From the NCBI GenBank assembly GCA_032718475.1, contig JAUCBJ010007179.1, positions 62,001 to 126,000 of the forward strand: a stretch of DNA of 64,000 nt. Direction: 5' to 3'. Within the stretch, counting starts at the first letter, position 1, and every line of letters starts with the position of its first letter. Of the stretch, positions 29,330-64,000 are shown piece by piece. The translations under genes and the position numbers were made by a program. Source of the DNA: Nemertoderma westbladi (lineage: Eukaryota > Animalia > Xenacoelomorpha). The notes under the pieces are model-generated. The model did no database searches, was not told where the DNA came from, and was given only the letters and a program-made list of their open reading frames with translations.

Positions 29330-29339
29330 GTAACAGTTA
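29330..29339 (+). promoter_or_regulatory. Non-tRNA primer-binding site of element 1 (GTAACAGTTA)
   Basis: Abuts the LTR, has no TGG, and is the perfect reverse complement of LTR positions 28568-28577 (TAACTGTTAC). Confidence 0.7.
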
Positions 29340-37623: not shown

Positions 37624-37701
37624 CTGTTTAGAGTATTTTCGTATTTGAGAAACTGTGATTTTGTATATTTTATAGACTTAAATCCCATTTTCTGGGAGCG
37701 G

Positions 37702-38889: not shown

Positions 38890-41800
38890 CATGTATTACT
38901 AAATAATAGATCGGAACATGGATAACTAAATAATAGATCGGAACATGTATTACTAAATAATAGATCGGAACATGTATTACTAAATAATCATTATCGGAAC
39001 ATGTATTACTAAATAATAGATCGGAACATGTATTACTAAATAATAGATCGGAACAGGGATTACTAAATAATAGATCGGAACATGGATAACTAAATAATCA
39101 TTATCGGAACATGTATTACTAAATAATAGATCGGAACATGGATAACTAAATAATAGATCGGAACATGGATAACTAAATAATCATTATCGGAACATGTATT
39201 ACTAAATAATAGATCGGAACATGTATTACTAAATAATCATTATCGGAACATGTATTACTAAATAATAGATCGGAACATGGATAACTAAATAATAGATCGG
39301 AACATGGATAACTAAATAATCATTATCGGAACATGTATTACTAAATAATAGATCGGAACATGGATTACTAAATAATAGATCGGAACATGGATAACTAAAT
39401 AATCATTATCGGAACATGTATTACTAAATAATAGATCGGAACATGGATAACTAAATAATAGATCGGAACATGGATAACTAAATAATCATTATCGGAACAT
39501 GTATTACTAAATAATAGATCGGAACATGTATTACTAAATAATAGATCGGAACATGGATAACTAAATAATCATTATCGGAACATGTATTACTAAATAATAG
39601 ATCGGAACATGTATTACTAAATAATCATTATCGGAACATGTATTACTAAATAATAGATCGGAACATGGATAACTAAATAATAGATCGGAACATGGATAAC
39701 TAAATAATCATTATCGGAACATGTATTACTAAATAATAGATCGGAACATGGATTACTAAATAATAGATCGGAACATGGATAACTAAATAATCATTATCGG
39801 AACATGTATTACTAAATAATAGATCGGAACATGTATTACTAAATAATCATTATCGGAACATGTATTACTAAATAATAGATCGGAACATGGATTACTAAAT
39901 AATAGATCGGAACATGGATAACTAAATAATCATTATCGGAACATGTATTACTAAATAATAGATCGGAACATGGATAACTAAATAATAGATCGGAACATGG
40001 ATAACTAAATAATCATTATCGGAACATGTATTACTAAATAATAGATCGGAACATGGATTACTAAATAATAGATCGGAACATGGATAACTAAATAATCATT
40101 ATCGGAACATGTATTACTAAATAATAGATCGGAACATGGATAACTAAATAATAGATCGGAACATGGATAACTAAATAATCATTATCGGAACATGTATTAC
40201 TAAATAATAGATCGGAACATGGATTACTAAATAATAGATCGGAACATGGATAACTAAATAATCATTATCGGAACATGTATTACTAAATAATAGATCGGAA
40301 CATGTATTACTAAATAATCATTATCGGAACATGTATTACTAAATAATAGATCGGAACATGGATAACTAAATAATAGATCGGAACATGGATAACTAAATAA
40401 TCATTATCGGAACATGTATTACTAAATAATAGATCGGAACATGGATTACTAAATAATAGATCGGAACATGGATAACTAAATAATCATTATCGGAACATGT
40501 ATTACTAAATAATAGATCGGAACATGTATTACTAAATAATCATTATCGGAACATGTATTACTAAATAATAGATCGGAACATGGATTACTAAATAATAGAT
40601 CGGAACATGGATAACTAAATAATCATTATCGGAACATGTATTACTAAATAATAGATCGGAACATGGATTACTAAATAATAGATCAGAACATGGATAACTA
40701 AATAATCATTATCGGAACATGTATTACTAAATAATAGATCGGAACATGTATTACTAAATAATCATTATCGGAACATGTATTACTAAATAATAGATCGGAA
40801 CATGGATAACTAAATAATAGATCGGAACATGGATAACTAAATAATCATTATCGGAACATGTATTACTAAATAATAGATCGGAACATGGATTACTAAATAA
40901 TAGATCGGAACATGGATAACTAAATAATCATTATCGGAACATGTATTACTAAATAATAGATCGGAACATGTATTACTAAATAATCATTATCGGAACATGT
41001 ATTACTAAATAATAGATCGGAACATGGATTACTAAATAATAGATCGGAACATGGATAACTAAATAATCATTATCGGAACATGTATTACTAAATAATAGAT
41101 CGGAACATGTATTACTAAATAATCATTATCGGAACATGTATTACTAAATAATATATCGCTACATGTATTACTAAATAATAGATCGGAACATGTATTACTA
41201 AATAATAGATCGGAACATGGATAACTAAATAATCATTATCGGAACATGTATTACTAAATAATAGATCGGAACATGTATTACTAAATAATCATTATCGGAA
41301 CATGTATTACTAAATAATATATCGCTACATGTATTACTAAATAATAGATCGGAACATGTATTACTAAATAATAGATCGGAACATGGATAACTAAATAATA
41401 GATCGGAACATGGATAACTAAATAATCATTATCGGAACATGTATTACTAAATAATAGATCGGAACATGGATTACTAAATAATAGATCGGAACATGGATAA
41501 CTAAATAATCATTATCGGAACATGTATTACTAAATAATAGATCGGAACATGGATTACTAAATAATAGATCGGAACATGTATTACTAAATAATCATTATCG
41601 GAACATGTATTACTAAATAATAGATCGGAACATGGATAACTAAATAATAGATCGGAATATGGATAACTAAATAATCATTATCGGAACATGTATTACTAAA
41701 TAATAGATCGGAACATGTATTACTAAATAATAGATCGGAACATGGATAACTAAATAATAGATCGGAACATGTATTACTAAATAATAGATCGGAACATGTT

Positions 41801-43224
41801 TTACTAAATAATAGATCGGAACATGTATTACTAAATAATAGATCGGAACATGGATTACTAAATAATAGATCGGAACATGTATTACTAAATAATAGATCGG
41901 AACATGTATTACTAAATAATCATTATCGGAACATGTATTACTAAATAATAGATCGGAACATGTATTACTAAATAATAGATCGTAACATGGGTTTCTAAAT
42001 AATAGATCGGAACATGTATTACTAAATAATAGATCGGAACATGGATTACTAAATAATAGATCGGAACATGGATAACTAAATAATAGATTGGAACATGGAT
42101 AACTAAATAATCATTATCGGAACATGTATTACTAAATAATAGATCGGAACATGGATAACTAAATAATCATTATCGGAACATGTATTACTAAATAATAGAT
42201 CGGAACATGGATTACTAAATAATAGATCGGAACATGGATAACTAAATAATAGATTGGAACATGGATAACTAAATAATCATTATCGGAACATGGATTACTA
42301 AATAATAGATCGGAACATGGATTACTAAATAATAGATCGGAACAGGGATTACTAAATAATAGATCGGAACATGTATTACTAAATAATAGATCGGAACATG
42401 GATTACTAAATAATAGATCGGAACATGTATTACTAAATAATCATTATCGGAACATGTATTACTAAATAATAGATCGGAACATGGATTACTAAATAATAGA
42501 TCGTAACATGGATAACTAAATAATAGATTGGAACATGGATAACTAAATAATCATTATCGGAACATGTATTACTAAATAATAGATCGGAACATGTATTACT
42601 AAATAATAGATCGGGACATGGATAACTAAATAATAGATCGGAACATGGATTACTAAATAATCATTATCGGAACATGTATTACTAAATAATAGATCGGAAC
42701 ATGTATTACTAAATAATAGATCGGGACATGGATAACTAAATAATAGATCGGAACATGGATTACTAAATAATCATTATCGGAACATGTATTACTAAATAAT
42801 AGATCGGAACATGTATTACTAAATAATAGATCGGAACATGTATTACTAAATAATAGATCGGGACATGGATAACTAAATAATAGATCGGAACATGGATTAC
42901 TAAATAATCATTATCGGAACATGTATTACTAAATAATAGATCGGAACATGTATTACTAAATAATAGATCGGGACATGGATAACTAAATAATAGATCGGAA
43001 CATGGATTACTAAATAATCATTATCGGAACATGTATTACTAAATAATAGATCGGAACATGTATTACTAAATAATAGATCGGGACATGGATAACTAAATAA
43101 TAGATCGGAACATGTATTACTAAATAATAGATCGGAACAGGGATTACTAAATAATAGATCGGAACATGTATTACTAAATAATCATTATCGGAACATGTAT
43201 TACTAAATAATAGATCGGAACATG
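38890..43224. repeat. 27-bp satellite array, block 2
   Basis: Same monomer and variants as block 1. Confidence 0.98.
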
Positions 43225-44497
43225 TGTAAAAGCTTCTGTGGGATATAACTGGCCCCTTTGCTTCGCAATCCAGTTTCCCCCTAGGCGCTGGAATACTCTA
43301 AAAGGGTTCTCTAACTGTATATATATTCCCCTTGCCCGCAAGGTACCGTTACAGGTGTTTTTAACGGACATAAAAGTCATTCTTCTATATACGTGTTTTA
43401 GCGGACATGGTAAGGCAAAAAACCCGCAATACGGCAAATACTTTACACAGTTTAGCCGTGATGATTCAGATTACGACATCTAACAGCTGGTTGCTTAAAT
43501 GGAAACAGCCATTTTACGCATGGTTCTTTGTTTGGCTTCAGCCAATCAGAGCGATTCTCTCTGTCGATGTGGAGCTTTGAGCCGATCATACTGGGATTGT
43601 TCAGTCTTACAGTTTTTTACTGATACTTTGTTGTTATTGCTGTCTAAGCCAGAAACAACGGCTCGAGAAAGAAACATTAGTAGGCTTAAATTATAGAGCG
43701 TATGACTGTGATCAGTACACAGTCTAATTCACGGCACAATTTGGACACTTAACATATCACTGTATATATCTGTTCATATCATATCTTAACCTACCGTCTT
43801 AATATTTTTACTGTTGTTATTATTTTATATCAGTTGATTGAAGATTATTTGGAGAACGTTTATAAAGAACCCAAATTTCCCAATTTTCTTGATACACTAC
43901 AGGTTAGAGAGGCGGGTTATATTTATAGCGATTGCGACTTATATTATTGTGGTGTGTATTGAATTTAATGCTATTTGATAAGCACTACATTGGTCCGTTG
44001 CTATTTTCTTTATATATGATAAAATTCATTGACGGTCGGCAAGTTAGTGAGCAGTATTTTGTGTTACCGGTAGTGTGCATGATTGTGGCTGATAACTAAG
44101 CATTTCCTAAAGAATGAGCCTCATACGTGAATCATAAGCCTTACCGACTTACCGTTGTGATTAGTGTAAGTCATATCTCTGTTTACTTAGATAGAGCGCC
44201 ACGTCCTAAAGGAACTGTTAATATTTCCCGAAAGTGAATAATATTAGTCAGAAATTATTTATTAACGATCAATCGAATAATACAATACCGTAAGCTTCAC
44301 TGCAATAATAATCTAAGCCGACAGAATCCAGTCTCCCGGGATTATCCAGCGGGTGAATGGACGCGCACTAGGCTGGCTTCTGCTAATGTTGTGTTTATTG
44401 GTATTAAATATTGTCATCTTCTAGAGTCGATTTATAAACCAAAAGACATATAAATTTTGGCAGGTTAAACTGCTAAAGGTCTTCAAAAGCGCGTACA
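43225..44497 (+). repeat. 5' LTR of element 2
   Basis: About 8 substitutions versus 60805-62077 counted by eye. CCAAT at 43542 and Inr-like TCAGT at 43601 are conserved in element 1. Confidence 0.95.
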
Positions 44498-44508
44498 ATA
44501 ACAGTCAT
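44498..44508 (+). promoter_or_regulatory. Non-tRNA primer-binding site of element 2 (ATAACAGTCAT)
   Basis: Abuts the LTR and is the perfect reverse complement of ATGACTGTTAT at 61282-61292 (3' LTR). The 5' LTR copy at 43702-43712 has one mismatch. Confidence 0.72.
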
Positions 44509-44563
44509 TGACTTTATTGCAGTAAGCAATAAAGTTGAAAGTACCGATCGACCGGTAAACCTG

Positions 44564-44690
44564 AACCGGTACTTCTGTAGGTCAGTAGGCCCAACTGCCA
44601 GAACCGGTACTGCTGTAGGTCCGTAGGTCCAACTGCCAGAACCGGCACTTCTGTAGGTCCGTAGGCCCAACTGTCCTAACCGGTACTTCC
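44564..44690 (+). repeat. 38-bp tandem repeat x3.3 in the element 2 leader
   Basis: AACCGGTACTTCTGTAGGTC(A/C)GTAGGCCCAACTGCCAG repeated; about one copy in element 1 at ~29483. Confidence 0.85.
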
Positions 44691-46731
44691 AGTATAAGTA
44701 CATTAGTATTATTCGATTTTGATTATAGTATACCGGTAGGTCTTAGTATTTAATCAGGGAACGGCCGCCCTGGTTTTTATTGAGATTTTACTTATTTCTG
44801 TCGGTTTTATTTACATGTAAGTTAATATTGAGCTGAAGACGTGTAAGTCTGCTCAGATTGTTCAGATAACTGTAGGCCAGACTGTTGTCGGATTGTTGTT
44901 GGGTTTGGAGAGATTACGGCGTGTGTGGAGTTTGTCCGATAGAGTGCCAGTTAGTAAGTTGGGGCAACTTGAGTGTAAGGTCAACCCCCTCTTAAAGAAT
45001 AAGTCGTACTACCGTGTTAGAACGCATACTAACTAACGATTTTGGAATCTGCACATACTGTAGTTTATTTAGGCTTGACAGTATTCTGCCAGCGTTTAGG
45101 CCTGTGTTTGTTTGTGTAGTCTGTCCAGGTACCATAATAGTTATTACTCAGATATTTTGTAGGCTGGATTGTTGTCTAGCTATTACTAGGTCTGAAGAGA
45201 TTGCTGCTTGTGTAGAGTTTGTCTGATAAAGTGCCAGTTAGTAAGTTGGGGCAGTCATAACTGTAAGGTCAATCCCCTCTTAAAGAATAAGTCGTACTAC
45301 CGTGTTAGAACGCATACTAACTAACCGTTTTGGAATCTGCACATACAGTAGTTTATTTAGGCTTGGTGGTAGTCTGCCAGCGTTTGGTTTGTATTTTGTT
45401 TGAGTATTCTGTACGGGTAGCGTAATATTTATTATTCAGAGTTTATGCGATTATTCGCAACATTCATGTCCCCAAGTTTATTCCTACAGTAATTGTGTTT
45501 GTTACACATACCGTTATAGTTAAATTAACCCCGGTACTACACGGGCTGCTTGGCGTAGGTAAAGACTGGTGACTTTGTGCTCCGGTCACTCCAGCAGATG
45601 CCGTGGTTCTTTTAACTGTTCAAGTATATTTAACTACTGATTATTTGTTATACCAGTACTTGTACCTAATTTAGGGTTTAGTGTACAGTGCTTTCCAAAG
45701 TAATTAGTGTGTAGGCAGTATATTTGTGTTGTAAAGTGGTTAATAGGCACGCTGGATCTGGTAGTCCGCGGTAATTAACTTCTAGGTAGGAACAATCCGT
45801 GATACATAACGTAGTACCTATAGCGATACGGTTATAGGTCGTCAGGCGGTGGTATTTTCCTATCTGGACAATGCAGTGTATTTACTACTACTTATTATTT
45901 CAAATACCGTAGTACCCTGTCCGTTGTAATAACCAGAATTCTAACCCTTTGTTAGGCTGGTTTGTAGACTTCCTGTAAAATTACCCTAAAAATATTCGTA
46001 CGTAATATTTTCGTTGTGTTTAATTAGAGATTTAATCTCACCCGTATCGTAAGTAATTTGTAGTATTAAGTAACTTAGGTAAATTAGAATTATCTGTTTT
46101 AGTGTCCCATAAATAGCACTTCACTGAGAGCGCACAGCTTCTGTGTAGTGACTCCCCTAGAAATAATGACATTTATTTCAAATATAGACAAAACCCTTTT
46201 AACGGGTATATATATATATTATAAATCAACTCAAACGATTTATAAGTAGTAGGCCTGCCATACAACAACTAGGTCTCAATATCAGTTGGACTACTGCTTA
46301 AATAACGGTAACAAAGTAAGTTAGAGTAACCAAGTAACCCTAAATATTCAGAAATTCAATTATTCTAAAATAATTGACATACCGGTATTTATCATAGGCT
46401 TATTATATTTATTTCTATAAATTTGAGTTAAAATCATACCGGTATTCTGTAATTAATTCTAGTTCATAATTATACTTATATATACTATAAGTGTAAGCTG
46501 TATACCGGTATTCACGATAGGCCTATTATATATTTATATATATTTGTGCTAAATTTATATACCGGTACTCTGTGACAAACCTAGTTTACAATACTTATAT
46601 ATACTATAAGTGTATACCGGTATTCTAATATACTGTAATAAATTACTGGTACTAGGCCAACGGTCATACTGAATTACTGGACTTGCTTTAACTGTAACTA
46701 TAGCAGTAAGCATTCAACTGTATAGCTAAAC

Positions 46732-49700
46732 ATGTCTGACACTCAGCAAAACCTGTCAGATAGTCTAATCGATACAACCATCTGTGACACAGATAGGAGT
46801 GTGGAGCGATTAAGAAAGGAGTTCAGCTCACCTCCTACTGAGAGAAAGGTCATTCCCCCACCAGTAGTATCAGACCCTAGGCTAATCCAACACCGTAGGT
46901 CTATCATCGGCACTCGGGCCCAAGTCAAACGGAACCAGGAAGCAGCTGTTCCACAGCAGCAACAGCCTAGTCAAGAAACTTGTTCCCAGCGATCCGATAG
47001 CTCCAGTAGTTCGGATACTGTCGAGCTGACCCCCGAACGCGGATTGCAGATGGCGGCTACAGCCTACTCGGACCCTCTTCTCACCCTTCCTGCCGCAGTG
47101 CTAACCACTATATTGATTGCGGTGGAGGAACATCAAGCAGATTGGGCGAGGAATAAGAAAGCGACCCAAGATAATTATGCGGGATACGCCAGGGAAGAAT
47201 TGATGTCTATTGTCGAGTCACAATGGAACTTTCCCGGACCTGGACTCCCATTAGATCTGTCCGAAGCTACTTGGGAAGATATACACCGGATGGGAGTGAC
47301 TAAAGATACAATGGATCCAGCTGTTTGGAAGAGGTCGGCAGCAGGATATGTGCAAGGGTTCTTCGGCTCCTTAGAGCGATTAGAAGAACAACTGTTTCGA
47401 CAACCCCAAGGACCTCAAGAGCAGGAAGAGCTGCTATATCAAGTGCGCGAAAGAACCCTACGCATTAGACTAATTCTGTCAGCCTTTGAGGAAACTTCCA
47501 AAAGAAGACAGGACACGTCGCTGCAGGTTTCTGTTAAGACCTGGTTCCAGAGGGTAGGTCGCAAAGTGCAAGAAACGAACCAGTGGAAATCCCAGCTGTC
47601 TGAGAGACTAACTTATGAAGAACCAACCGATGCCACCCTTTCTGAAGTGGAAAGCGAAGAGACCGCAGAGAGACCACGAACGAGAGACGCCATCGACATT
47701 TACCTATCCGACTATCAGCGATTCTTAGGAGACGAAGAGTTGAGATGACGACTGTCTGGACTTTCCCCTAATAGTGAAGGAACCCAGCGTGTGTTAGACT
47801 CAATCGACGCTGAAATGTTGGCGGCTAATCAAGCTGAATTTGATGAAAAACTCCGCCTCACTAGAGTTCAAGAAGAACAAGTAAAGAAAAGGAGGATAGA
47901 GGACCAAAGGGCAGCGGCAATCGCAGAAGCCGAAGCAGAAAGAAAGGAGGCAGCGGCAAGGGCAGAAGCAGAAATACAAAGAAAGGCGGCCATGGCAGAA
48001 GCAGAAATACAAAGAAAGGCAGCGGCGGCAGAAGCAAAGGCGGCCATGGCAGAAGCAGAAGCAAGGGTGGAAAAGGCAGTAGCGGAAGCAGAACGGAGAG
48101 CGTCTGAGCAGACTACCCAACTGGAGTTGGAAAAGCTGCAAGAGACGCAAGATAACATAAATAAACAGTTAACTGCTAGTCACATGCAAATGATGAGAAA
48201 ATCTACTCCCAAACGCCAGGGCTATACTTCATCAGAGGAAAGCGAAACCACCGATCCTGAAGGCGGAGGAAATAGATCTCGTCTAAGCAGGCGTAGAAAA
48301 ACATCTTACCGTCACAAATTACCTGATTTGCCCCCAGCTGTTAAAAGACAACTAACTAGCACAGACTTAGGTAGTGCAGAACCCATAGAACAATTTATCC
48401 AGGTCAAAAGACTCCCTACTATAGTCGATGAGCCTGAAATAATTAGGCCTGTCGTTCCCAAAGTCACTCCTGTGCTAGAGACCCCTGCACTTCCAGAGCT
48501 TAACTCTAAATTCCCTTTACATAGTACTACACTGCCTGTACCCGGTGGAACAGTCCATGCAAATACCCCTGTCCTGAGCATTGAGAGAGGAATCAAAGAT
48601 TTGTCTCCCGTCGTCCCGCGTCAACCCGCTACAATGTTGGCGACTCCCGCTTCGGCGGTTGAGTGGGTAGAGGAGGGACGGCGGGGGATGAACCTCCTGC
48701 TCGGACAGATGCAGGAGACTGTCCACCAGCTTAAGGGAACAGTAAGGGAAAGTAGGGCAGAATTGCAAGAAGTGCAGCAAAGTATCGCACTAGAACGCGA
48801 TAAATTAGTCAATATACAAAAGGGCATACCAATACCCCCTGTAACATTGTGTCAACCTGTTAGGTCTAAAGTATTACATGCGCAAGGTGTGGAGCCTACA
48901 CGCATCTATACTGCTAGTGAAGTAGAAACTCCTATAGCAAACCCTATTAAGGGTGATTATAGACCTGTTATTAATGATATTCCCTATAGACCTGATAATG
49001 ATCCGAGAAATTTATATACCGATAATTCGATATTAAATAACACGATGGCCCAAGAAAGCTTTACGCGGCAGATGGCTAGAACAGAAGCCCGCCAAGCGGT
49101 CAAAGTGGGAGAGATCGTCAAATTCAATGGAGATGAGATGAAATGGTTACCTTTCAACGAATATTACAAAGACAGCATACAGAACTCTGTGCTATCTAAC
49201 GGAGAGAAACTTAGGTTCCTCATCAAGTGCTTGGAAGGACCTCCCAAGTTAATGGCGTTAAAGTTTATTGGACATCCAGAAGGATTAAGACAAGTTTGGG
49301 ATACATTAAACATCAGGTATGGTAACAAGGATAACATAGCTAAGTATTTGTATGCAAAATTAGTAGCCCCTCGACACTTCCTTAGTAGCGGGATTATAGA
49401 GTTTTCTGATGAAATTCAGGAAATCTGTAGACAATTGGACTGGTTAGGTAAGTCTCATGAATATCAGAGTTCCATGGTTATTGGAGCCGTAGTCTCTACT
49501 TTACCAAAGGGTGGAGTATGTACACGCTGGGACAAGAAAGTGTTGTACATGAATGAACAACAACGACGAAGTCCTACCATGGCTGATCTCATGTCCTTCT
49601 TAGATGGTGAGGTAAAACTACAACTCATCAAGCAGTCCAGAGAGAAAACATCGGAAAATAAGGTAAGTGAGAAACCCGCTTCTAGGAGAAGAGTAACACC

Positions 49701-52700
49701 GGTGTGTTACACTGACGACGGCGAAAGCCAAGCTTCTCAAGAAGAAGACAGCGGGAAAGACACCGAACGATCTTACTATGTTGACAAAACCTCAAAGGGC
49801 GTAAGTAAATACAAGGCTCGAAACAACGATAGGAGAGAACAGGCTGCCAAGACCCCTCCTCAGTCTCCTAACAGAATGCGCGGGAGAAAGCCCGAAGAAA
49901 GAACGAGAGTGCATCAGATTACCCAAGGTAAAGTAAGTAACATAAAACCTAACTGTGCGCTGTGCGACGGGACCCACCGTTTGAGTGCGTGTGCGGAATT
50001 TCTAAAGAAATCCCTTGTAGACAGACGTACAGTTGTGTGGGACAAGCGGTTATGCTATAATTGCCTCAGACCAGGACACCAACGGCGAACCTGTTACTCC
50101 GACATAAAGTGTGAAAAGTGTGGCGCGAAACATCACATCTTGTTACATAGTGAGTTCGAACGAGACAAGCAGAGTCAGGTAAGTGAGTCCGAACTACATG
50201 TCCAATTCAGTGATGTAAATGACACTGAGCAGGAGTCTGAGATGGAAGGATTCTATACTGACGAATTCTCCGACGCCAACGAATCCTGTTATCTAATCAA
50301 TACCGCAGTGTATCGAGCACTTACTTACGAAAAGGACACCACCAATGAGTTTTCCCCAACTACTTTTGCCAAACAACCATCTTGGAAAACGCCAACTTCC
50401 AACGTAGGAATCAGAGAATTTCCTGTAGTGCAAGTAAGAATTCATGGTACTCACCACAGTTACATAGTGAACGCACTCCTTGATTCCGGCAGCACAGGAA
50501 CATTCATAGATCAAGAATTAGCCGAAGACATCTTTGCTGGACAACCCAAATTCCGGACAAAATTGAATATGTCAGGAATTATGCAGGTATGGAAATCTAC
50601 CCTAACGGCAGATTACTACGTAGGTGTGTTGTCCACTCCCCAGGATAAGTTAGGAACACAAGGTATAAGGTCGGTAAAAATGGTGGCTATAAAGAACTTC
50701 GCTACTACTCAAGCAGACCTTTATAATTGGGACGAGGATGAGAGCATCCAACATCTTAAGATACCTCGGTTCCAGACAGATTATCCTGGAGTGCAAATAC
50801 TCATCGGCCAAAACGCGCACGAGGCGCTCGAAACATTGGAGAAACGGCCTGCTCAACCGCAGCCACTGCAAACCTATACGGTAAGAACTAGAGTAGGTTG
50901 GTACTTTACTGGCCCTTCCCGCAGGACTCTCGAAGAGAGAATGCCACAAGAACGAGTAGATCATGTGAGCGATTGGAGCGAGGAGAGCAGTGAGGTGGAC
51001 GAACTAACTGAGGGAACACCATACTCCTCAGATAACGATGACACTTATCAACTCTTCGATGAGGAGAACACCATAGACTTACTTACAGAAAACCAAACTT
51101 GGAAAGATCAGGTGAACCTATGTCAACTGATTCACCCATCGGAACCCATCGCTTACAATGACGAACTCAACGATGAGATAGAGCGCTGCAACGCTAGAAC
51201 TCGGGACGAACTAGCCGTACGATTCTTTACTCAGGAACTTGTAGAGCCCAATTCGTATGATAAGGCTCTATCGATAGAAGAAGAAAGAGCCAAGCAAATC
51301 CAGGAAACAACTACACGTTTTTTAAAAGACCAAGGTAGGTATGAAATCGGCCTGCCATTTCGAAAACGAGAACCTAGATTTATAAATAACAGACCCTTGG
51401 CAGAGAAAAGAATCGCTCAATTACATCGACGCCTTACAGCTAATGCTTCAGCGAAAGAAATGTACCAAACTCAGCTGAAGAAATTTATAACAAAGGGATA
51501 CGCGGAGCGAGTACCGGAAGGAACACCAGTGACTGAGAGAACGTATTACTTAACACATCATTACGTTCCCAAACCCGGTAAGCCCCATGAAGTACGAGTC
51601 GTATTCGATGGCTCTGCTCTATATATGGGCCAATCCCTTAATTCCGAGTTGTTACCAGGACCCAATTTACTCCAATCTTTGTTGGGAATACTTTTGAGAT
51701 TAAGACAGTATTCCATCGCGTTCGCTTCCGATATCTAAGGAATGTTCTTACAAGTCAAGGCGCTGGAGAGAGATAGAGACCGCCTGAGATTTCTGTGGTG
51801 GCCTGAAGGAGACCTCAACCAGAAACCGGTAGAGTACTGGATGACCATCCAGGCTTTTGGGATCATATCTAGCCCTTCCAACGCCTGCTCCATAGTGCGA
51901 ACCACTGCGAATGACAACAGAGATTCCTTCTCAAAGGAAGTGATAGACAATATAAAACGTAATATATACATGGACGACAATTTAAGGTCCCTTCCATCAG
52001 TAGAAGAAGCCATAGCTGTCGCAAAAGGAACGGTAGAGTGTTTGAAAAGAGGTGGATTTCGACTAACGAAATTCACTAGCAACTCCCGTGAGTTTCTGGA
52101 AGCCATACCGGTAGAAGACCGCGGAGCGAAAGATCTAGACTTAATAAAGGATGATCTTCCTGAAACCAAGACGCTTGGCTTGAAGTGGGACACTGAAAGA
52201 GACATCCTGTTTTTTCAGTTAAAACAGCGAGATAATCCAGTTCGGACCAAACGGATTTGTTTAAGTATCCTGAGCACTTATTTCGACCCATTGGGATTCA
52301 TTAGCCCAGTTATATTGATTGCTCGGAGTTTAGTACAACAAATGTGGCTTGAAAACCAATCATGGGACGATCCGCTTAAGGGAGAATTGTTAAAGAAATG
52401 GATGAAATGGGAAGATTCTCTACCTGCCATCGAGAACTTTATAATTTCCCGTGCATATTTTGGCCATGTTCTTCCTACGTATTCCTATCAACTCCATGTG
52501 TTTGGAGACGCCAGCGACATGGGAATAGGTATAGTAGCATATCTGCGAGTCGAAACTCCGGATGGAATCAAGGTCGCCTTGGTTACCTCTAAGGCACTGA
52601 TTAACAACAAGTTAAAGGTTCCTCGAGCGGAGTTAAAAGCGGCTTTATACGCTACAGCCATCGGCCGGAACGTAACGGAACAAATCGATTACCCACTGGA

Positions 52701-54852
52701 GAAAACGGTTTATTGGACCGACGCTTTACTCGTGTTGGAATATCTAACCAATGAAGTCTGTCAGTTCAGTGTTTTTGTTAATAACAGGGTAGCTATTATT
52801 CTTAGTCGCACAAAGATAGATCAATGGAGACATTGCCCTGGTACGATTAATCCAGCCGATATCGCCTCCAGGGGAGCAACTCCGCAGGAACTGATAGATA
52901 CTCCAGATTGGTTGGGTGGACCCGACTTCCTGAGCAAGGAAGAGGACGAATGGCCTCCTCACCTTACTACGGCGGAAATTAGACAAGCCAAGGGAGCGGA
53001 GACCGTCAAACCTAAAACCCGGGCGAGTAAATCGAAGTTATTTAAACCGACTATCGATCTATCTGTATTACATGTTTCCGGAAACGATGATTTGGATCCA
53101 CAATCCCTCGCTATAAATAAGTCTGTTGCGGAAATTCGAGATAGAGATTGGAAATCTGGAATACCAGACGTCTCGCAAGGAATCTCACCCCTGCTGCAGA
53201 GAGCGATGCATCACTACAGTTCCTGGAATCGGCTCTGTAAAGCCGTCACATATTTAAAGAGATGCTTTCATCATCAATACTCCAGGATGAAGACCACTAG
53301 TGATAATGCTCCATTGACATCTGCACAAGTTCATGTTATTAAAAACTTACCTAAATATAAGGTATCTGACAGTTTTCTAAAGGAGAAAATTAGTCACCAG
53401 GAGCATGAAGAGACCAATAAACAGATACTGAGACTCCTGCAATGCTATGAGGATTCCGAAAAGTATTTCCTGTTGTTGAGAAATCCGCAGATGCGCTTAA
53501 GGGATCGATTCTCTAGCACAATGATAGATGGGTTAATACATGTTGGAGGAAGGCTCACCAATGCACCCTTATCCTTTGACACTAAATTCCCCATACTCAT
53601 TAGAAATCTTGAAGTACAAATCAAGATGATTGTAGATGTTCACAGTAAGCTTTATCATGCTGGAAGAGAACGAGTTCTTAGCGAAATTCGAACTCGCTAT
53701 TATTTTGATAAACCCCGTAGAGCTCTGAACCAAGTTCTTAGGAACTGCATACCCTGTAGGAAAGCATTCAGTAGGCCTTTAACACAGCGAGAGGCAGAAT
53801 TACCTAGGGAACGAGTAAGCTTCTATGAACCACCTTTTACTAATACTGGTGTAGATTTATTTGGCCCTATTGAAGTATATCGTGCGAGGACTATAGTCAA
53901 GAGATGGTGTGTCATCTTCGTGTGCATGACTTGCAGAGCCATCCATCTCGATATGGTGAACGATCTATCTACCAACAGTTTCGTCTTAAGTTTACGACGA
54001 CAGATCGCTCGCTTCGGTACGAGTAATACCATGAGATCGGACAAGGGAACGAACTTCATTGGTGCCAACAACGAAATACAGGCTTACGTAAAGGACTGGA
54101 ACCAAAGACAGGTGGATGACCAGCTAAGGATAACAGCGTCTAGCTGGACCTTCAACGCCGCCGACGCCCCTTGGTGGGGAGGAAGTTGGGAGAGATTAAT
54201 TAGAAGTGTTAAGACCGCATTTCACTTTATAGTGCCATGCCGTGCGTATCTCACTGACGAACTTTTGCGGACGTTAATGGAGGAAATAGCTGCCTATCTC
54301 AATGAGAGACCGCTTATGCCAGTCTCATCGAGTCCCGATTCCCTGGAAGCGCTAACACCTGCGCACTTCCTACTGAAGAAACCGGTAGCCATGCTCCCAC
54401 GATCGGAGATTGCCGACGGAGACGAATACTGCCGTCGAACTTGGCAACTTTTGCAGTTGCTATCCCGTCGTTTCGCTGACCATTTCGAGAAACATTACCT
54501 GCCCACGCTACAACTTCGAACTAAGTGGTTTGCGCAGCAAGAAAACGTCAGCGCCGGAGATATGGTATTTATTGTAGATCCAGACCTCCCACGTAAACGG
54601 TGGCAGACAGGTCGTATCATCGAGACCCATATCTCGGAGGATGGTTTAGTGCGTTCAGTAGAACTCATCGTTATGCGGCGTAACTTCAAGAAGCCCGGCA
54701 TAATCTTTGAGACGCAACAACTCAATCGCCCAGTTGGTCGTTTATGTTTACTGGAAAGAGACAGAGAACTCTCCGGAAACTATGGAAGGCAAGACACTCT
54801 TCCCACGACCACCTCCCTAATACCTCAAACATCTAGGGACTCCCCAACGTAA
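46732..54852 (+). pseudogene. gag-pol: Single Gag-Pol ORF (~2706 codons) with two in-frame stops (47746-47748 TGA, 51736-51738 TAA)
   Basis: ORFs 46732, 47791 and 51742 share one frame. Gag knuckles; PR LLDSGS; RT VRVVFDGS, GPNLL, SDI*GMFLQV, YMDD at 51967; RNase H FDPLG, HVFGDAS, PRAEL, YWTD, NPADIASRG; IN H-x4-H..CIPC, GVDLFGP, RSDKGTNF, GSWERLI; DUF5641-like tail. Confidence 0.95.
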
Positions 54853-56477
54853 TACGTCTGGAGTGGGTGTATGACTATATTATTTTATCTATTTTATTAC
54901 ATTTTATATGCAAACTTTATTATGTACTTTATTATAATCGTTTTTATTCAATTTTTATTTAGTAGAATGTTATTTTAGGGATTATTTAGTAGATTAGTGC
55001 AATATATTAGTGTTTATTACGTACGTAATTACTTATAATATATATTTAGTGCGACGGCGAGAAATAATTATTTTTCTCTTCCCTTACTGTCCGTATCATA
55101 TTATAAATACGTGACTACAGTAAGATGAAATGTCCGTACTTCTTAAAGTACAATAAAGCCACTACTATGTTCGAGTGTTGTTAGTAGGCAGAGTATTAGG
55201 AATGCAAAGTTCAGATCCTCGTGTCTCGGCTAAACCAAGCTCTGGGTAGACCTTGGAAACGACTTGCCTCTTCACACTGACATTGCTTCGTGCGATATTA
55301 CTCTTCTACCTTATATTAAATAATACATATAGTAGCGAGATGTCCATATAACAGTAGCATAAAACGCAAATAAATCTGTTAAACTTTTGACCATCTGTAA
55401 TTCTAGTCGATTAAGATATCGCGGCACCCACCGATATACTTGAAAGACAAATTCTAGAATCAGTGGTTAACGTCCCCAGACAAGTTCTGGAATAAATCGG
55501 TGCCCATCTTAAATATTAATTTAATATTTATTAAAATCTGTAAAATTCAGATCCGTTAACAATTCCAGTCGATTAAGATATCGTAGCACTTACCGATACT
55601 CTTAAAAGACAAATTTCATAGAATTAAGGATCCTATGTCCCCAGACCTGCTCTGGAATCAAATTGTGTCAATTTTAACATCAAATAATAAAATTCACGGG
55701 AATAAATTTAAATTCATATCTTAAATGAATTTCATAAATTGTCATTTTGTACAATTTATAACATTCCCAAAATTCCATTAATTAATAGATCATGGGAGCG
55801 GAGATTCATCCTATTGAGTGTATTAGAGTGCGAGAATCTCCAACATATAGTCAATAGCCGATAAAATTAATAAAATCATGCATAAAGAGGATATTGACAA
55901 TTAAAGAATTATTATTAAATAGCATCCCAGATCTGTATGCATGAGAATTACCCTAATTCTACCGCTAGCTTTCCATAATGTCACCATAGCAACACCCACG
56001 CTAGAATTAGAATTGAGTTAAAAGAACAATAGAAGGCATACCCCATTGAATAGCATACGGAATAAATAGCGCACCGCTAGTATCCAAGGATACATAATAA
56101 ATACAGTGACATTCTGGAAGGTACTGACTAACGGACAAATGGCCCGAATGTGTGCGGTTTGTTGCAGTTGTGTTGAATTTGTGCGTTTGTAGGTGAATGT
56201 TACTACTAAAGTATGTTTACAGTAGCTAGTCGCAATTGTAAAAATAACCCAACTTTCCTATAGAAAGAACCTAAGTGGATCCAAGCCTTTGGGACGGACA
56301 GTGGTGTGACTTGTGCCGGTTATCGTTGTCGTGCTGTTGCTACATGTTGGCGTAAACACCGCGACGACGGTACATCGGCGCTGAGAATCCCACTGTCCGG
56401 GGGCAAAGAAAGTAGGCAGCGACGCCCGCTTGCCTAAATACAAACTTATTTGATATTGATAAACTCAGATAGCAGAT

Positions 56478-59400
56478 ATGACGGAGTTAATAGAAGATGA
56501 TCTCGGTATTAGGGAGCGATATACTCTACCTTTGCAAGCATTTGTGGATAGCTTAATACGCGGTGAAGCCGATCCAACCATTACGGAGGACGATGGTCGT
56601 TATATCGAACCGCCGATGTCCCAAGAGCAACTTGCGCGTGAATTGGACTATCGAAAATTCACCACTCGCTATACGAATCGTAATGGTACGTATATGGACT
56701 TCCTAACGACCGGCCATCCTATCGATTTACATGATACGGACGATATAGATACAGAAAGAGAAATGGTTCTATTTAAATATCATACCCAGCGGAGTCGTAA
56801 CGATAAACCGAGAATAGATCACGAAAATTATATTCGTAATAGACTGGAAAGAGAAAACGTTGAAGAACCGGATAAACGCATCGACTTCAACGAATACTTA
56901 GAGTTTTTGAGAGAAACCTATCTCAACGTCGCTAGTCAGCAGAACTTAGAGACTCGATATCCTCAAGGTATCCATCACGACCCTGTAGTAGAACTCAAAC
57001 GGCTCTATTTCACTATGATGTATCTTACCGCCGATCGTCCACTACCTGTTATCCCGGATAGTTTTGAACAAATGGAAGAATACTGCAAAACTGGAGAACG
57101 ATCACCCGCGTTTCCTTTACAGGATGTGCGTCTTTGGTATTATTGCGACGAATGCCCTAGACCCAACCAACAAATTGAAAGACATAAACATCCACGGAGA
57201 CGTTGCGCTAAACATAGTTTTACGCGTTACACTTACGGGAGTTTCGAGCGAAACCTGTTCGACGTACCGCCCACGATCGCTCGTCTTAAACGATCACTGA
57301 ATAAACCCATGATCAGAGTTCCGGAATACTCGGTCAGGCCTCCTCATTCCCTAGTGAGACCTCAAACTCTTGATCCTAACAGTATCACTGATCCTCCCGA
57401 ACTATATTCCCTGTTCAAAGACTTAGTGTTACCCGAACAATTAATCGGTGGCGCTCCGGTAGTGGGTTCGTTAGACATCCGCCCATCCTACTTAGCCGGA
57501 TTGGGACGCGGGCAGCTAATATCACCCTTTGATCCTTACAATCGTCCAGGATTAAACCCGATACAACCCGCTACGGAAGTCGAGGAGAGCGTTATAAGAA
57601 ATGCTTTAGACGCCATTTGACAGAAAATCGGAAAGGGAACACAAGATTGTTTAGAGAAACGTAAATTACAACAACAAGTCCAAGCGGTGAAGGAGTTAGC
57701 CTTACCACAGTTCGATAGAGAAATCCGAAACCTCGAGGAAGACATCGAGCTTGGACGCACGTATTCTCTCCAAGAATTCTTAGATGAACGCTTACAGAGA
57801 CAAGCGGAAGAAATTCTACTCGAGGAGAAACACACGAAACTGGAAGAAAGAGAAGAAGCCGCTTTAGCCCAACCTGAAGCTCAAATCCTCATGACGGACC
57901 TCTACTCTAAAACCGTTCGTCATCCCTCTATGATTCCACATTTCGGAGACAAGCTCTTCGCGACGATACAACCTCAACCGGTTGATATCAGTATAGGATC
58001 GCAAAATATTATCGCTGACGCCCCTATGTTACAGCGTCCGCCGATCGAGGCCGCTCGTGTTGACGGTATACTCGTTGAACCTCCGGACAATCGAGCGGAT
58101 CTTGTCCGTCGTATGGTACACGATGTCAACATACGCGCTAGACCTTTACAGAACTCGTTTTACGGGATTAAAGACCACCCTTATTACGTTAATCTGACTC
58201 AATATTATATGGTAAAACCAGAAGACCCGACACATGATTTAAAGTTTCTACCACTAATAAATCCTCTAGACATTGTCGAACTCGAACAATTGCAGAAACA
58301 TCTGGATCAGTTAGTAAAGGTAAACTCATTTAGAAAACCATATAACATTTCGCGAATCGAGAAAGATATAGAAACTCCTTATAACCTCGATGGATTTATT
58401 AAAACTCGATTAGTCCATTGGAATCTAGATGTATTATTTGAAGAAGAGAAAATACAAAGATATGGAACTGTGGAGACGTATACCACTCGGCATATGAAGT
58501 ATAGGGATCTCCCTGACGCTAACCAATGCGCCACCTTGTGGCATCCAGTAGGGATGACCCTAGAGAACGCCACCAAGGAGTGGAATGAAACTCTTAATGT
58601 TATCGAGATGTATGGAGTTGTCACCTACGATAATGAAGGTAGCGTTCCGGTCGGAGAGCTAGGAACTACGCGCATGATCCACATCCGCGGATTAGCTGGT
58701 TCTACCCACGTGTTTACTCGAGCGTGTTCCGACTTGATTGATTATTCTTTTGAAACTCTTACCGAAACACAAAAGAATCTCCGACATGGACAATTCGAAC
58801 TCGCGCAGCGTTACGTCATTGACACCGAACGCAAACCGGCCATGGGCATCGATGGATCGATGTTACCCCAGCCCGTACTCGAGATGTTGTTCAACGAAAG
58901 AATCCTTAAAATCGGCTCAGCTGTTTATGGAGATCTCCAAAACGACTTTCGGAATATGGAGGACATTCCATACCCTTTCGTTGATACTCAGCTGATTGCT
59001 CCCTGGGCAGAAGGTCGAGGTTTCTTCCGCACCATGTATGCTAATACGTCTAGCAACATTACCAAGGTGCAACGGACTTCCATCGGACATCTTGCCTTTC
59101 AGGAATACGGATGGAATTTCAAAGTCGGAAATCCCGTTAACTATCAACAAGTATACGGAGACCATTATTCTCGATTATACTTTGATGGACCATTGACCGC
59201 ACCTGGCGCCGTGTATAGCTTCATGAGTGTTCCACTCCGTCCCTCCTTAGCTATATACCTTTGAAAACACCGCACTTGCCGGTTGGCTAGCCGATGTGTG
59301 CAGTCGTACCATACGCGCCCATCCATTAATACTTGGGACCAAACTCGATAAACTAGATGAACATAATAAATTCATTCGTTTCGAATGTTTCCGGCGATTT

Positions 59401-60726
59401 TTAACCCCGTTCCGCAACGTGGATAGCCAATTTAAAGACCGCGCTTTGACCAAGCTCAGCCTAAGAGACTCAGCTGCAGAGAAGTTGGATAGCGCTGGAT
59501 TCGCCATTTTCCAGGAGATTTGTACATCGAACCTGCACTCCTCTGTTCTACAAAGACCTCGAATCCCCACCGGTTATTCTGTCGTAGAAATTCAGACAAT
59601 AGGTCCACCCGAGGAGACAGACACGCCCACCTCATCTATGCACTTAGAAGATGAACCAATATGTCTAGAATCTGAGGAGATTCAGCCTATCACGCCCCGG
59701 AACAGCGACAACGACTATATCATCGAATGGTATCAAGGTCCACAGTGTCTCACTGCGTACGATTATCGCCATGCCAACTATGTTTCTAGGCAACGTTGTC
59801 GGTTATGTGCATCGAGAGACCACGATACGCCCATGGATACCAACGTCCGCTGTTCCTATTTCCAAGAACAACCGACTATGGAAATTTATTGCGCATATTG
59901 CAGACTCAATAATCTGCATATCTTTGCGGTTTGCCCTCAATTTATGACTCAATGTCACCATTGTCAACTAAAGGGACATGCCAGTTTCGACTGCCCTTTT
60001 AATCACGATTTGGAAAGCGTAGATGAAATGATCACACTGCGTTACATCAGAGCTTGGGAAGCGAACGCTGATTTACATTGTGATTCGCGCCATCGCTATT
60101 ATCCCGGACGCGCTTACGAAGGAGTTTATGCGTTCCATCCTTATCTATTCGCTTCTGTTGAACAGAAATCACGCATATCGAGCTACGAGTTACTGAAGCG
60201 CGTCGGAGAATGTATTTCAACTAAATTTGTACGCAAATTTCTCAGGAGTGTTAATCCTAGCGACCTTCATTCCTATAACTTAATCAATTATATCCGTCAG
60301 GATCCAGACTATGGAGACTTGTTTGTTAACTCACACCCTGAGTTACAGGAAGTATATCGACGGCCTTACGAATACCGAGCCCGCGAACGCGAGTTGGAAA
60401 GGACCATTAAACCCCGGAAGTTTCTAACTGCCTATGGTCCACCCACGGCCCTCGTTCAGACCACACGTAAAGGACCCGTAAGAGCGGCTGTCTTGAAACG
60501 AGCTCTCAAAGCCATTAGACCCCTCTCACCTGACGTTGACGTCAATCAACCCGGTACTTCGACTGGCGGATACACCGACCATAATCCTACACCCTCTGAT
60601 GCAATCATATTGCACCCTTCACCCAGGAGTTATAGCCCTCCTTGTAAAGTGGCTCGCCCCAAAGAGAAAAGGACTCTTGCTAGCTTTAAAAAACTGCGTA
60701 AATGCCGTCCGCGCAAGAAAGACTAA
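56478..60726 (+). pseudogene. ORF3 (~1415 aa when repaired): unknown N-terminus, coiled coil, DEDDy-type 3'-5' exonuclease fold, triple CCHC zinc knuckles, basic tail. One in-frame stop (57618-57620) and one frameshift (~59260)
   Basis: ORFs 56478 and 57687 are in the same frame. Motifs VVTYDNEG, LPQPVLEMLFNERILKIGSAVYGDL, FVDTQ, SIGHLA, PLT-x5-Y and CHHCQLKGHASFDC. Element 1 fuses the N- and C-terminal parts, consistent with a single gene. Confidence 0.82.
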
Positions 60727-60795
60727 CTGTTTAGAGTATTTACGTATATTAGAAACCGTGATTTTTGTATATTAATAGACTCAAATCCCATTTTC

Positions 60796-60804
60796 TGGGA
60801 GCGG
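60796..60804 (+). promoter_or_regulatory. Short polypurine-tract-like plus-strand primer site TGGGAGCGG
   Basis: Directly abuts the 3' LTR in both elements. Confidence 0.65.
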
Positions 60805-62077
60805 TGTAAAAGCTTCTGTGGGATATAACTGGCCCCTTTGCTTCGCAATCCAGTTTCCCCCTAGGCGCTGGAATACTCTAAAAGGGTTCTCTAACTGTAT
60901 ATATATTCCCCTTGCCCGCAAGGTACCGTTACAGGTGTTTTTAACGGACATAAAAGTCATTCTTCTATATACGTGTTTTAGCGGACATGGTAAGGCAAAA
61001 AACCCGCAATACGGCAAATACTTTACACAGTTTAGCCGTGATGATTCAGATTACGACATCTAACAGCTGGTTGCTTAAATGGAAACAGCCATTGGACGCA
61101 TGGTTCTTTGTTTGGCTTCAGCCAATCAGAGCGATTCTCTCTGTCGATGTGGAGCTTTGAGCCAATCATAGTGGGATTGTTCAGTCTTACAGTTTTTTAC
61201 TGATACTTTGTTGTTATTGCTGTCTAAGCCAGAAACAACGCCTCGAGAAAGAAACATTAGTAGGCTTAAATTATAGAGCGTATGACTGTTATCAGTACAC
61301 AGTCTAATTCACGGCACAATTTGGACACTTAACATATCACTGTATATATCTGTTCATATCATATCTTAACCTACCGTCTTAATATTTTTACTGTTGTTAT
61401 TATTTTATATCAGTTGATTGAAGATTATTTGGAGAACGTTTATAAAGAACCCAAATTTCCCAATTTTCTTGATACACTACAGGTTAGAGAGGCGGGTTAT
61501 ATTTATAGCGATTGCGACTTATATTATTGTGGTGTGTATTGAATTTAATGCTATTTGATAAGCACTACATTGGTCCGTTGCTATTTTCTTTATATATGAT
61601 AAAATTCATTGACGGTCGGCAAGTTAGTGAGCAGTATTTTGTGTTACCGGTAGTGTGCATGATTGTGGCTGATAACTAAGCATTTCCTAAAGAATGCGCC
61701 TCATACGTGAATCATAAGCCTTACCGACTTACCGTTGTGATTAGTGTAAGTCATATCTCTGTTTACTTAGATAGAGCGCCACGTCCTAAAGGAACTGTTA
61801 ATATTTCCCGAAAGTGAATAATATTAGTCAGAAATTATTTATTAACGATCAATCGAATAATACAATACCGTAAGCTTCACTGCAATAATAATCTAAGCCG
61901 ACAGAATCCAGTCTCCCGGGATTATCCAGCGGGTGAATGGACGCGCACTAGGCTGGCTTCTGCTAATGTTGTGTTTATTGGTATTAAATATTGTCATTTT
62001 CTAGAGTCGATTTATAAACCAAAAGACATATAAATTTTGGCAGGTTAAACTGCTAAAGGTCTTCAAAAGCGCGTACA
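60805..62077 (+). repeat. 3' LTR of element 2
   Basis: Direct repeat of 43225-44497, followed by TSD ACATG. Confidence 0.95.
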
Positions 62078-64000
62078 ACATGTATTACTAAATAATAGAT
62101 CGGAACATGTATTACTAAATAATAGATCGGAACATGTATTACTAAATAATAGATCGGAACATGTATTACTAAATAATAGATCGGAACATGTATTACTAAA
62201 TAATAGATCGGAACATGTATTACTAAATAATAGATCGGAACATGTATTACTAAATAATAGATCGGAACATGTATTACTAAATAATAGATCGGAACATGTA
62301 TTACTAAATAATAGATCGGAACATGGATTACTAAATAATAGATCGGAACATGTATTACTAAATAATAGATCGGAACATGTATTACTAAATAATAGATCGG
62401 GACATGGATAACTAAATAATAGATCGGAACATGGATTACTAAATAATCATTATCGGAACATGTATTACTAAATAATAGATCGGAACATGTATTACTAAAT
62501 AATAGATCGGGACATGGATAACTAAATAATAGATCGGAACATGTATTACTAAATAATAGATCGGAACATGTTTTACTAAATAATAGATCGGAACATGGAT
62601 AACTAAATAATCATTATCGGAACATGTATTACTAAATAATAGATCGGGACATGGATAACTAAATAATAGATCGGAACATGGATTACTAAATAATCATTAT
62701 CGGAACATGTATTACTAAATAATAGATCGGAACATGTATTACTAAATAATAGATCGGAACATGGATAACTAAATAATAGATCGGAACATGTATTACTAAA
62801 TAATAGATCGGAACATGTTTTACTAAATAATAGATCGGAACATGGATAACTAAATAATCATTATCGGAACATGTATTACTAAATAATAGATCGGAACATG
62901 TATTACTAAATAATAGATCGGAACATGGATTACTAAATAATAGATCGGAACATGTATTACTAAATAATAGATCGGAACATGTATTACTAAATAATCATTA
63001 TCGGAACATGTATTACTAAATAATAGATCGGAACATGTATTACTAAATAATAGATCGTAACATGGGTTTCTAAATAATAGATCGGAACATGTATTACTAA
63101 ATAATAGATCGGAACATGGATTACTAAATAATAGATCGGAACATGGATAACTAAATAATAGATTGGAACATGGATAACTAAATAATCATTATCGGAACAT
63201 GTATTACTAAATAATAGATCGGAACATGGATAACTAAATAATCATTATCGGAACATGTATTACTAAATAATAGATCGGAACATGGATTACTAAATAATAG
63301 ATCGGAACATGGATAACTAAATAATAGATTGGAACATGGATAACTAAATAATCATTATCGGAACATGGATTACTAAATAATAGATCGGAACATGGATTAC
63401 TAAATAATAGATCGGAACAGGGATTACTAAATAATAGATCGGAACATGTATTACTAAATAATAGATCGGAACATGGATTACTAAATAATAGATCGGAACA
63501 TGTATTACTAAATAATCATTATCGGAACATGTATTACTAAATAATAGATCGGAACATGTATAACTAAATAATCATTATCGGAACATGGATTACTAAATAA
63601 TAGATCGGAACATGGATTACTAAATAATAGATCGGAACAGGGATTACTAAATAATAGATCGGAACATGTATTACTAAATAATAGATCGGAACAGGGATTA
63701 CTAAATAATAGATCGGAACATGTATTACTAAATAATAGATCGGAACATGGATTACTAAATAATAGATCGGAACATGTATTACTAAATAATCATTATCGGA
63801 ACATGTATTACTAAATAATAGATCGGAACATGGATTACTAAATAATAGATCGGAACATGGATAACTAAATAATAGATTGGAACATGGATAACTAAATAAT
63901 CATTATCGGAACATGGATTACTAAATAATAGATCGGAACATGGATTACTAAATAATAGATCGGAACATGTATTACTAAATAATAGATCGGAACATGGATA
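62078..64000. repeat. 27-bp satellite array, block 3 (runs off window end)
   Basis: Same monomer and variants as blocks 1 and 2. Confidence 0.98.

Follow-up and report, generated by a model that had tools for sequence, protein, structure and literature searches.

The question raised by this locus is how a retrotransposon without a recognizable binding site for a transfer RNA (tRNA) primes its reverse transcription, and whether an exonuclease-like protein that it encodes takes part in the process. The window, i.e. the whole stretch of 64,000 nucleotides (nt) that was analysed, comes from Nemertoderma westbladi (assembly GCA_032718475.1, contig JAUCBJ010007179.1, positions 62,001-126,000 of the forward strand) and contains element A, a long terminal repeat (LTR) retrotransposon of 18,853 nt (43225-62077), together with a diverged relative, copy B. 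A preliminary description of this DNA had proposed that the 3'-5' exonuclease encoded by the third open reading frame (ORF3) of element A matures a primer derived from the element's own LTR. Our analyses suggest that element A is probably a BEL/Pao element that primes itself in a Tf1-like manner, with RNase H as the probable cutting enzyme and ORF3 as an accessory RNA nuclease that priming would not need.

Complementarity between the primer-binding site and the LTR

The LTRs, the putative primer, the primer-binding site (PBS), the coding region used for classification and copy B are located as follows:

43225-44497, + strand: 5' LTR of element A, 1273 nt long, with 8 differences from the 3' LTR (99.4% identity)
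43702-43712, + strand: putative self-primer within the 5' LTR of element A, mismatched with the PBS at one position; duplex energy -10.2 kcal/mol
44498-44508, + strand: PBS of element A, covering the 11 nt that directly follow the 5' LTR, without TGG and complementary to the element's own LTR
46732-54852, + strand: gag-pol of element A (Gag, protease, reverse transcriptase, RNase H, integrase), with domains DUF1759, Peptidase_A17, Integrase_H2C2 and DUF5641
60805-62077, + strand: 3' LTR of element A, including the perfect 11-nt complement of the PBS (61282-61292)
28088-38887, + strand: copy B, a diverged, internally deleted relative of element A, with primer at 28568-28577, PBS at 29330-29339 and a shortened 3' LTR

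In both copies the 43 nt that follow the 5' LTR contain no TGG, which confirms the absence of a tRNA-type PBS reported in the preliminary description. The PBS of element A is the exact complement of 61282-61292, a length of match reached by 3 of 3000 dinucleotide shuffles, and copy B carries a 10-nt PBS complement at the orthologous LTR position (matched by 10 of 3000 shuffles), the complement starting at LTR position 478 in A and 481 in B. Two PBS positions differ between A and B, and at both the partner position in the LTR differs too, resulting in two compensatory changes within a family whose PBS variation was judged from these two copies. The LTR-derived complementary primer described earlier was thus recovered. 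With its 11 nt placed directly after the LTR, the pairing has the length and position by which self-primers are recognized, namely a complement of at least 10 nt beginning 0-5 nt past the LTR (PMC6317226), and the own-LTR complement of at least 10 nt of Tf1/sushi elements. In element A the primer and the PBS lie 796 nt apart.

Judged by its pol order (protease, reverse transcriptase (RT), RNase H, integrase) and its Pao-type domains, element A is a BEL/Pao-type retrotransposon. The best database matches of its gag-pol are Pao-type polyproteins, at 30-41% identity, so that the Ty3/gypsy chromoviral pol characteristic of the Tf1/sushi group is not found here. All RNase H motifs are retained and RT and integrase motifs are present too, the pol motifs located being YMDD (51967), FGDAS (52501), RAELKA (52624), WTDAL (52714) and PADIASR (52852). 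Element A shares with the Belpaoviridae (PMC8742986) the Gag-protease-RT-RNase H-integrase order, Pao-specific Pfam domains, LTRs ending in TG...CA and a polypurine tract, while it departs from their profile in lacking an 18-nt tRNA PBS, in its length (18.9 kb against 4.2-10 kb) and in having a third ORF that is exonuclease-like and not env-like.

The following RNA structures were predicted around the PBS:

44299-44308, + strand: 5' arm of the outer helix, pairing with 44514-44523 just 3' of the PBS; invariant in copy B
44361-44366, + strand: 5' arm of the inner helix, pairing with the end of U5 (the unique 5' region), 44489-44494; one compensatory change
44509-44538, + strand: hairpin located 3' of the PBS and competing with the outer helix; 12 pairs, one two-sided change

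Tf1 requires two additional helices beside its PBS (PMC10085805), and flanking helices at orthologous places in A and B are consistent with a Tf1-like layout, with weak statistics. The outer helix showed a pair probability of 0.97 in the local fold and of 0.46 once the competing hairpin was included, and the inner helix about 0.9 in A and 0.55 in B when the PBS was kept unpaired. In a fold running from the primer to 44545, the primer:PBS duplex of element A was formed with a probability of about 0.86.

Self-complementary sites and putative LTR introns among BEL/Pao relatives

The best 80 of 528 BEL/Pao loci from metagenome contigs made up the survey set; 36 of them had too little sequence upstream of pol and were left out of the PBS scan, for which 44 remained eligible. 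By a strict scan, 11 of these 44 loci showed a PBS complementary to the splice junction of their own LTR, as compared with 3 of 264 cross-locus pairs, one of them within the same family. A looser scan returned 13 of the 44 loci, with controls at 104 of 1884 (5.5%) for 10 nt and 29 for 11 nt. With the PBSs of these 13 loci fixed, none of 152 cross-locus controls reached 10 nt and the unspliced LTRs yielded only 5-7 nt; since the loci had been chosen by the looser scan, only the controls count in this comparison.

The 13 junction loci (L005, L006, L009, L010, L012, L017, L018, L035, L047, L051, L053, L069 and L073) have a complement of 10-15 nt, 4-9 nt of it from the first exon, and a PBS located 0-3 nt after the 5' LTR. 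Their junction would arise by removal of a GTAAG...AG intron of 71-423 nt from their own LTR. When the LTR end was defined by LTR-LTR homology alone, a complement of at least 10 nt was found in 6 of 10 rows (four junction, two contiguous); among the misses, three do not end at the LTR end by eye, and L079 is a true miss. Together with three loci having a contiguous complement (L001, L020 and L074), the junction loci give 16 loci with a self-complementary PBS. This count leaves aside the relaxed-donor matches (L013, L026, L032, L042, L049, L060, L067 and L070) and contiguous matches in loci whose LTR end was not defined, for which the control rate was 421 of 1884.

The space between pol and the 3' LTR measures 121-450 nt in 14 of the 16 self-complementary loci and about 70 nt in L051, the contig of L047 having no 3' LTR. 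Because this gap is only about 70-450 nt, 15 of the 16 loci could not accommodate ORF3, and a self-complementary PBS therefore does not need it. An exonuclease ORF was found in none of the 80 loci (best E 0.6, with a weak two-sequence profile). Co-occurrence of ORF3 with a self-complementary PBS across BEL/Pao had been set beforehand as the test of the proposed role of ORF3 in primer maturation, and it gave the opposite outcome, i.e. relatives of the self-priming type without ORF3. These relatives are distant from element A, with at most 43% RT identity, which limits the comparison. In a quick tree element A falls on the side holding all of them, and the priming type is not clustered beyond shuffles.

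Two groups of loci deserve separate mention. L020, with its primer at 122, and L017/L018 represent sister families sharing the 3' part of the primer, which is contiguous in L020 and lies across the intron in L017/L018; this arrangement suggests intron loss in L020. TGG-type, tRNA-like PBS candidates were seen in L064 (near 142) and L071 (near 966), so tRNA-type sites are also present among the sampled BEL/Pao loci.

Possible counterparts of these introns in the LTRs of the window are located as follows:

43708-43902, + strand: possible LTR intron of element A, with a weak GT donor within the primer and a conserved acceptor-like block
28573-28739: possible LTR intron of copy B, the counterpart of the stretch in A

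Conservation within the LTR is lowest immediately after the primer, in a stretch that is 47% identical between A and B and that ends in an acceptor-like block with 97% identity. If the GT within the primer were joined to this acceptor, 10 of the 11 bases of the primer would be restored in element A, and 9 in copy B. The block is followed by the same four bases as the weak donor, and the primer core is identical in the spliced and unspliced forms. From these features, the LTR of the window may hold the same kind of intron as its relatives. The unspliced LTR pairs one base further than the spliced one in both copies, and splicing is therefore not needed for the primer of A and B. The acceptor-like block could otherwise be kept as a stem (43889-43897 with 43954-43962). 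Should the 3' LTR copy in the RNA escape splicing, it could pass on an intron that lies 5' of the cut. Another GT, immediately preceding the primer, was rejected as donor as its +5 G is lost in copy B; with this donor the primer would fall in the 5' end of an intron.

ORF3 and its proposed role in primer maturation

The features of ORF3 are the following:

56478-60726, + strand: ORF3, about 1400 codons, with the reading frame interrupted by a stop (57618-57620) and by a frameshift near 59259
58611-59300, + strand: RNase D-like (DEDDy-type) domain, with probable ExoI YDNEG (58626), ExoII VYGDL (58923) and ExoIII Tyr 59256 and Glu 59263
59797-59994, + strand: Cys/His zinc-knuckle cluster (zf-CCHC_3, E 0.027)

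The breaks in ORF3, like two in-frame stops in gag-pol (47746-47748 and 51736-51738), had gone unreported; both ORF3 breaks look private to this copy because contigs of other copies in public runs differ at both places. The RNase D-like nature of the protein, already indicated in the preliminary description together with the knuckles, was confirmed as a weak similarity. ORF3 matched TIGR01388 with an E value of 0.0024 over 46 residues (model positions 60-105), far below the curated cut-off; this match supports the region of the ExoII Asp, and an alignment to RNase D (1yt3) was obtained at E 2.4. A single relative, the protein P0001, was retrieved among 1.84 billion representatives (E 5.7e-05), and its knuckles also follow the domain. 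When the ORF3 domain, with X at the break, was aligned to P0001, the score was 158 against a shuffle maximum of 52, at an identity of only about 30%.

By this alignment, ExoIII corresponds to Tyr 59256 and Glu 59263, astride the frameshift and in register with the Y-x3-E of P0001, the alignment of the tail alone being modest (34 of 1000 shuffles). The canonical Y-x3-D is thus absent from ORF3, where Glu replaces Asp as it does in P0001. The Ser previously assigned to ExoIII, which we assume to be that of YSFMS (59226-59228), lies about ten residues before this position and looks mis-registered; the argument for a binding or anti-silencing role built on it falls, since this Ser is probably not a catalytic position. 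ExoI YDNEG fits by eye, with 249 of 2000 shuffles scoring equally, another register scoring similarly and MAFFT picking the other register. Taken together, these weak but consistent similarities describe an exonuclease domain that would be DEDDy-like and not canonical.

No relative of ORF3 was found among 618 candidates of 300-958 amino acids, nor in viral contigs, and no further one among 7989 candidates scored starting from P0001. Sequence searches of the PDB with the exonuclease domain gave chance matches only, and an Atlas search with the same domain gave nothing above 0.79. The Atlas neighbours of P0001 are PF01612 clusters, regarded as leads only. ORF3 is under purifying selection in the regions comparable with copy B, the ratio of nonsynonymous to synonymous substitution rates being 0.06 (122 codons), 0.15 (175 codons) and 0.37 (128 codons), compared with 0.22 for gag-protease; these regions lie outside the exonuclease domain, which copy B lacks.

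On these bases, element A very likely uses its own RNA to prime reverse transcription, as suggested by the lack of a tRNA-type PBS and by the co-variation of PBS and LTR. Transcription would start at or near the primer segment, and the fold of the RNA would set the PBS between two helices and allow it to bind the 5' segment. In Tf1, RNase H cleaves between bases 11 and 12 (PMC7175516); by analogy, the likely enzyme for the cut in element A is RNase H, which would cleave 3' of the duplex so that RT could extend into U5. Many BEL/Pao families without ORF3 carry the same signature, mostly across the exon-exon junction of an LTR intron. In all likelihood ORF3 is not required for self-priming; it may, tentatively, trim or degrade short RNAs such as host silencing RNAs, with the knuckles as RNA-binding module.

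It appears highly improbable that ORF3 is needed to produce the primer, as the preliminary description had proposed. In cis, a 3'-5' exonuclease could release a primer only once the RNA had been cut, because the RNA 3' of the primer consists of U5 and the genome, i.e. the template, which trimming would destroy. The primer would then have to be a separate LTR-derived RNA, either a capped transcript of small size or an RNA produced from the LTR intron, such as the intron itself after excision, annealed in trans and trimmed to the PBS duplex by the element's own exonuclease. Such a role would suit the RNase D-like domain with acidic residues probably kept at the catalytic positions, the purifying selection on ORF3 and the long primer-to-PBS distance, and a 3'-end processing of element RNAs has been suggested for DEDDy ORF3s (PMC5408684); if true, it would represent a retroelement encoding both its primer and its primer-maturing enzyme. 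However, neither a conserved strong donor upstream of the primer nor a conserved poly(A) signal, as expected for a short primer RNA, was seen in the LTRs of A and B, the predicted local structure would keep the PBS open in cis, and the self-complementary relatives, in all loci except one, have no space for ORF3. DEDDy ORFs, moreover, also occur in the Penelope-like Terminons, which do not belong to the LTR elements (PMC5408684). A milder version, in which RNase H or another endonuclease cuts first and a helpful, non-essential ORF3 polishes an imprecise 3' end or trims complementary DNA ends, would reconcile the conservation of ORF3 with its absence from relatives, and the known substrates of DEDDy enzymes include single-stranded DNA as well as the ends of structured RNA (PMC5408684). 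It is nonetheless quite improbable, since nothing links ORF3 to the particle or to the PBS and the Terminons have similar ORFs without an LTR-type PBS.

Priming by a host RNA, e.g. a tRNA fragment, with the PBS-LTR pairing serving as a structural or regulatory helix, is likewise improbable. The TAACAG core common to the PBSs of A and B could presumably pair with the anticodon loop of tRNA-Asn. The primer:PBS duplex is rarely formed in global folds, tRNA priming is given for the Belpaoviridae (PMC8742986) and half-tRNA priming for some copia lineages (PMC6317226). On the other hand, the PBS changes in step with the LTR between A and B, and among 11 related families it varies and matches only the family's own spliced junction, which a host tRNA set leaves unexplained. 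A less remote alternative, still unlikely, retains self-priming and regards ORF3 as an RNA-binding adaptor without catalytic activity, comparable to EXD1 or Maelstrom. It agrees with the Glu found in place of the canonical ExoIII Asp in both the window and P0001, with the fit of more than one ExoI register, with the second place of an EXD1-like cluster among the Atlas results (score 0.77, regarded as a lead only) and with the function of inactive DEDD derivatives in piRNA pathways (PMC5408684). Yet an acidic residue stands at each catalytic position in two proteins that are only distantly similar, and variants with Glu in place of Asp (DEED) may be active according to PMC5408684.

Several results weigh against a self-priming element with a nuclease as ORF3. 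No TATA box occurs about 30 nt upstream of the primer. The flanking helices taken alone are mostly within chance (6 of 40 and 10 of 40 shuffles in A, 1 of 40 and 6 of 40 in B) and are not general among 14 relatives. In long folds the primer:PBS duplex had a probability of 0.0 in 16 of 18 cases and of 0.12 in one more, nested folding being incapable of showing a pseudoknot. The false rate of the looser scan, the choice of the 13 loci by that same scan, and the position of element A on a long branch of the quick tree, with no close relative sampled, also count on this side. As for ORF3, structure predictions of the exonuclease domain reached a predicted local distance difference test (pLDDT) of 31 and 38, a fold search gave no match, and the selection was measured outside the domain.

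Known systems and surroundings of the element

Self-priming has been described for the Tf1/sushi, Tcn1 and TAR lineages (PMC4600332, PMC6317226, PMC3601003). Tf1 and Tf2 of Schizosaccharomyces pombe, Tj1 and the Tf1/sushi elements present the same arrangement as element A, in which a PBS adjoining the 5' LTR is complementary to 11 nt of the LTR. The Tf1 'pretzel' places the PBS between two helices formed with LTR sequence downstream of the primer (PMC10085805), a layout that is predicted for element A with weak statistics. Element A differs from these Ty3/gypsy members in its BEL/Pao-type, non-chromoviral pol, in the roughly 800 nt between primer and PBS and in having relatives that would assemble the primer across a spliced LTR intron. 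For Tf1 the start site and the RNase H cleavage have been shown (PMC7175516), whereas those of element A are predictions. The accessible text of four BEL/Pao papers (PMC554778, PMC3118150, PMC8556966 and PMC6238403) makes no mention of a PBS, the word 'primer' appearing in one of them for laboratory methods only, and no report of BEL/Pao self-priming was found in the literature searched, with most subscription journals, Repbase notes and supplements outside the search. Together with the junction complement seen in 11 related families, a self-complementary PBS that co-varies with the LTR would bring BEL/Pao elements into the range of Tf1-type self-priming, and primers built at a junction would tie host splicing to reverse transcription.

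The exonuclease-plus-knuckle ORF3 in a BEL/Pao element is particular to the window, such ORFs coming otherwise only from rotifer elements in the literature examined. Juno, Vesta and the Terminons of bdelloid rotifers carry an RNase D-like ORF3 downstream of pol in which one catalytic Asp is replaced by Glu, as in element A; 3'-end processing and silencing roles have been proposed for them, none having been shown (PMC5408684). Those elements are not BEL/Pao and their motif is DEED, compared with a probable D-E-D-E in A (PMC5408684, whose accessible text does not mention a PBS or priming for them). The ORF3 of element A, with about 1400 codons and knuckles, is unlike the rotifer DEDDy ORF3s in these respects, its likeness to them being one of description. 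The pairing of exonuclease and CCHC knuckles, in the same order as in ORF3, is found in P0001 and in a Euglenozoa cluster (PF01612 100%, PF00098 61%; Atlas score 0.86, a lead only). Trypanosome RND trims the tails of guide RNAs.

The remaining features of element A are listed below:

43220-43224 (left) and 62078-62082 (right), + strand: target-site duplication ACATG, 5 bp, inside the 27-bp satellite
56294-56399, + strand: long GC-rich hairpin upstream of ORF3 (z -5.55, 0 of 200 shuffles)
60797-60804, + strand: polypurine tract

The preliminary description had listed several conserved RNA folds. The pre-ORF3 hairpin, the clearest of them, by its stability, and the hairpin 3' of the PBS, by its two-sided change, can be maintained, whereas a scan for local stems revealed no excess of compensatory changes, with 0, 1 and 1 stems in LTR, leader and spacer as against null means of 1.9, 2.2 and 1.9. 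The pre-ORF3 hairpin is retained in copy B with one-sided changes only and has no Rfam match at E<=1. It is very stable, lies about 80 nt upstream of the ORF3 start and might act in the translation of ORF3 or in RNA packaging. A search for tRNA genes was negative. The leader of element A (44498-46731) is unusually long, 2.2 kb, and contains 38-nt and 288-nt tandem repeats and repeated ATACCGGTAT palindromes. No exact match to the LTR of element A was found in the metagenome contigs; its family is very abundant in the organism of the public runs, as seen from contigs of other copies.

Copy B, whose LTRs are about 78% identical to those of A, lacks the RT, most of the RNase H and integrase, and the exonuclease domain. 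It has the aspect of a non-autonomous deletion derivative with an open Gag-protease frame of 1040 codons, and carries a second PBS-plus-hairpin unit near 29415. Copy B represents a multi-copy subfamily, because its deletion joints recur in public runs, with high depth in run X4. Both A and B lie in the same orientation within one 27-bp satellite array (21186-28087, 38888-43224 and 62078-64000), and a satellite-targeted insertion of the two is possible. Elsewhere in the window, the stretches 10523-13031, 19709-20935 and 4792-6901 contain fragments that by eye resemble endonuclease and RT frames of non-LTR retrotransposons, in addition to a 20-bp satellite.

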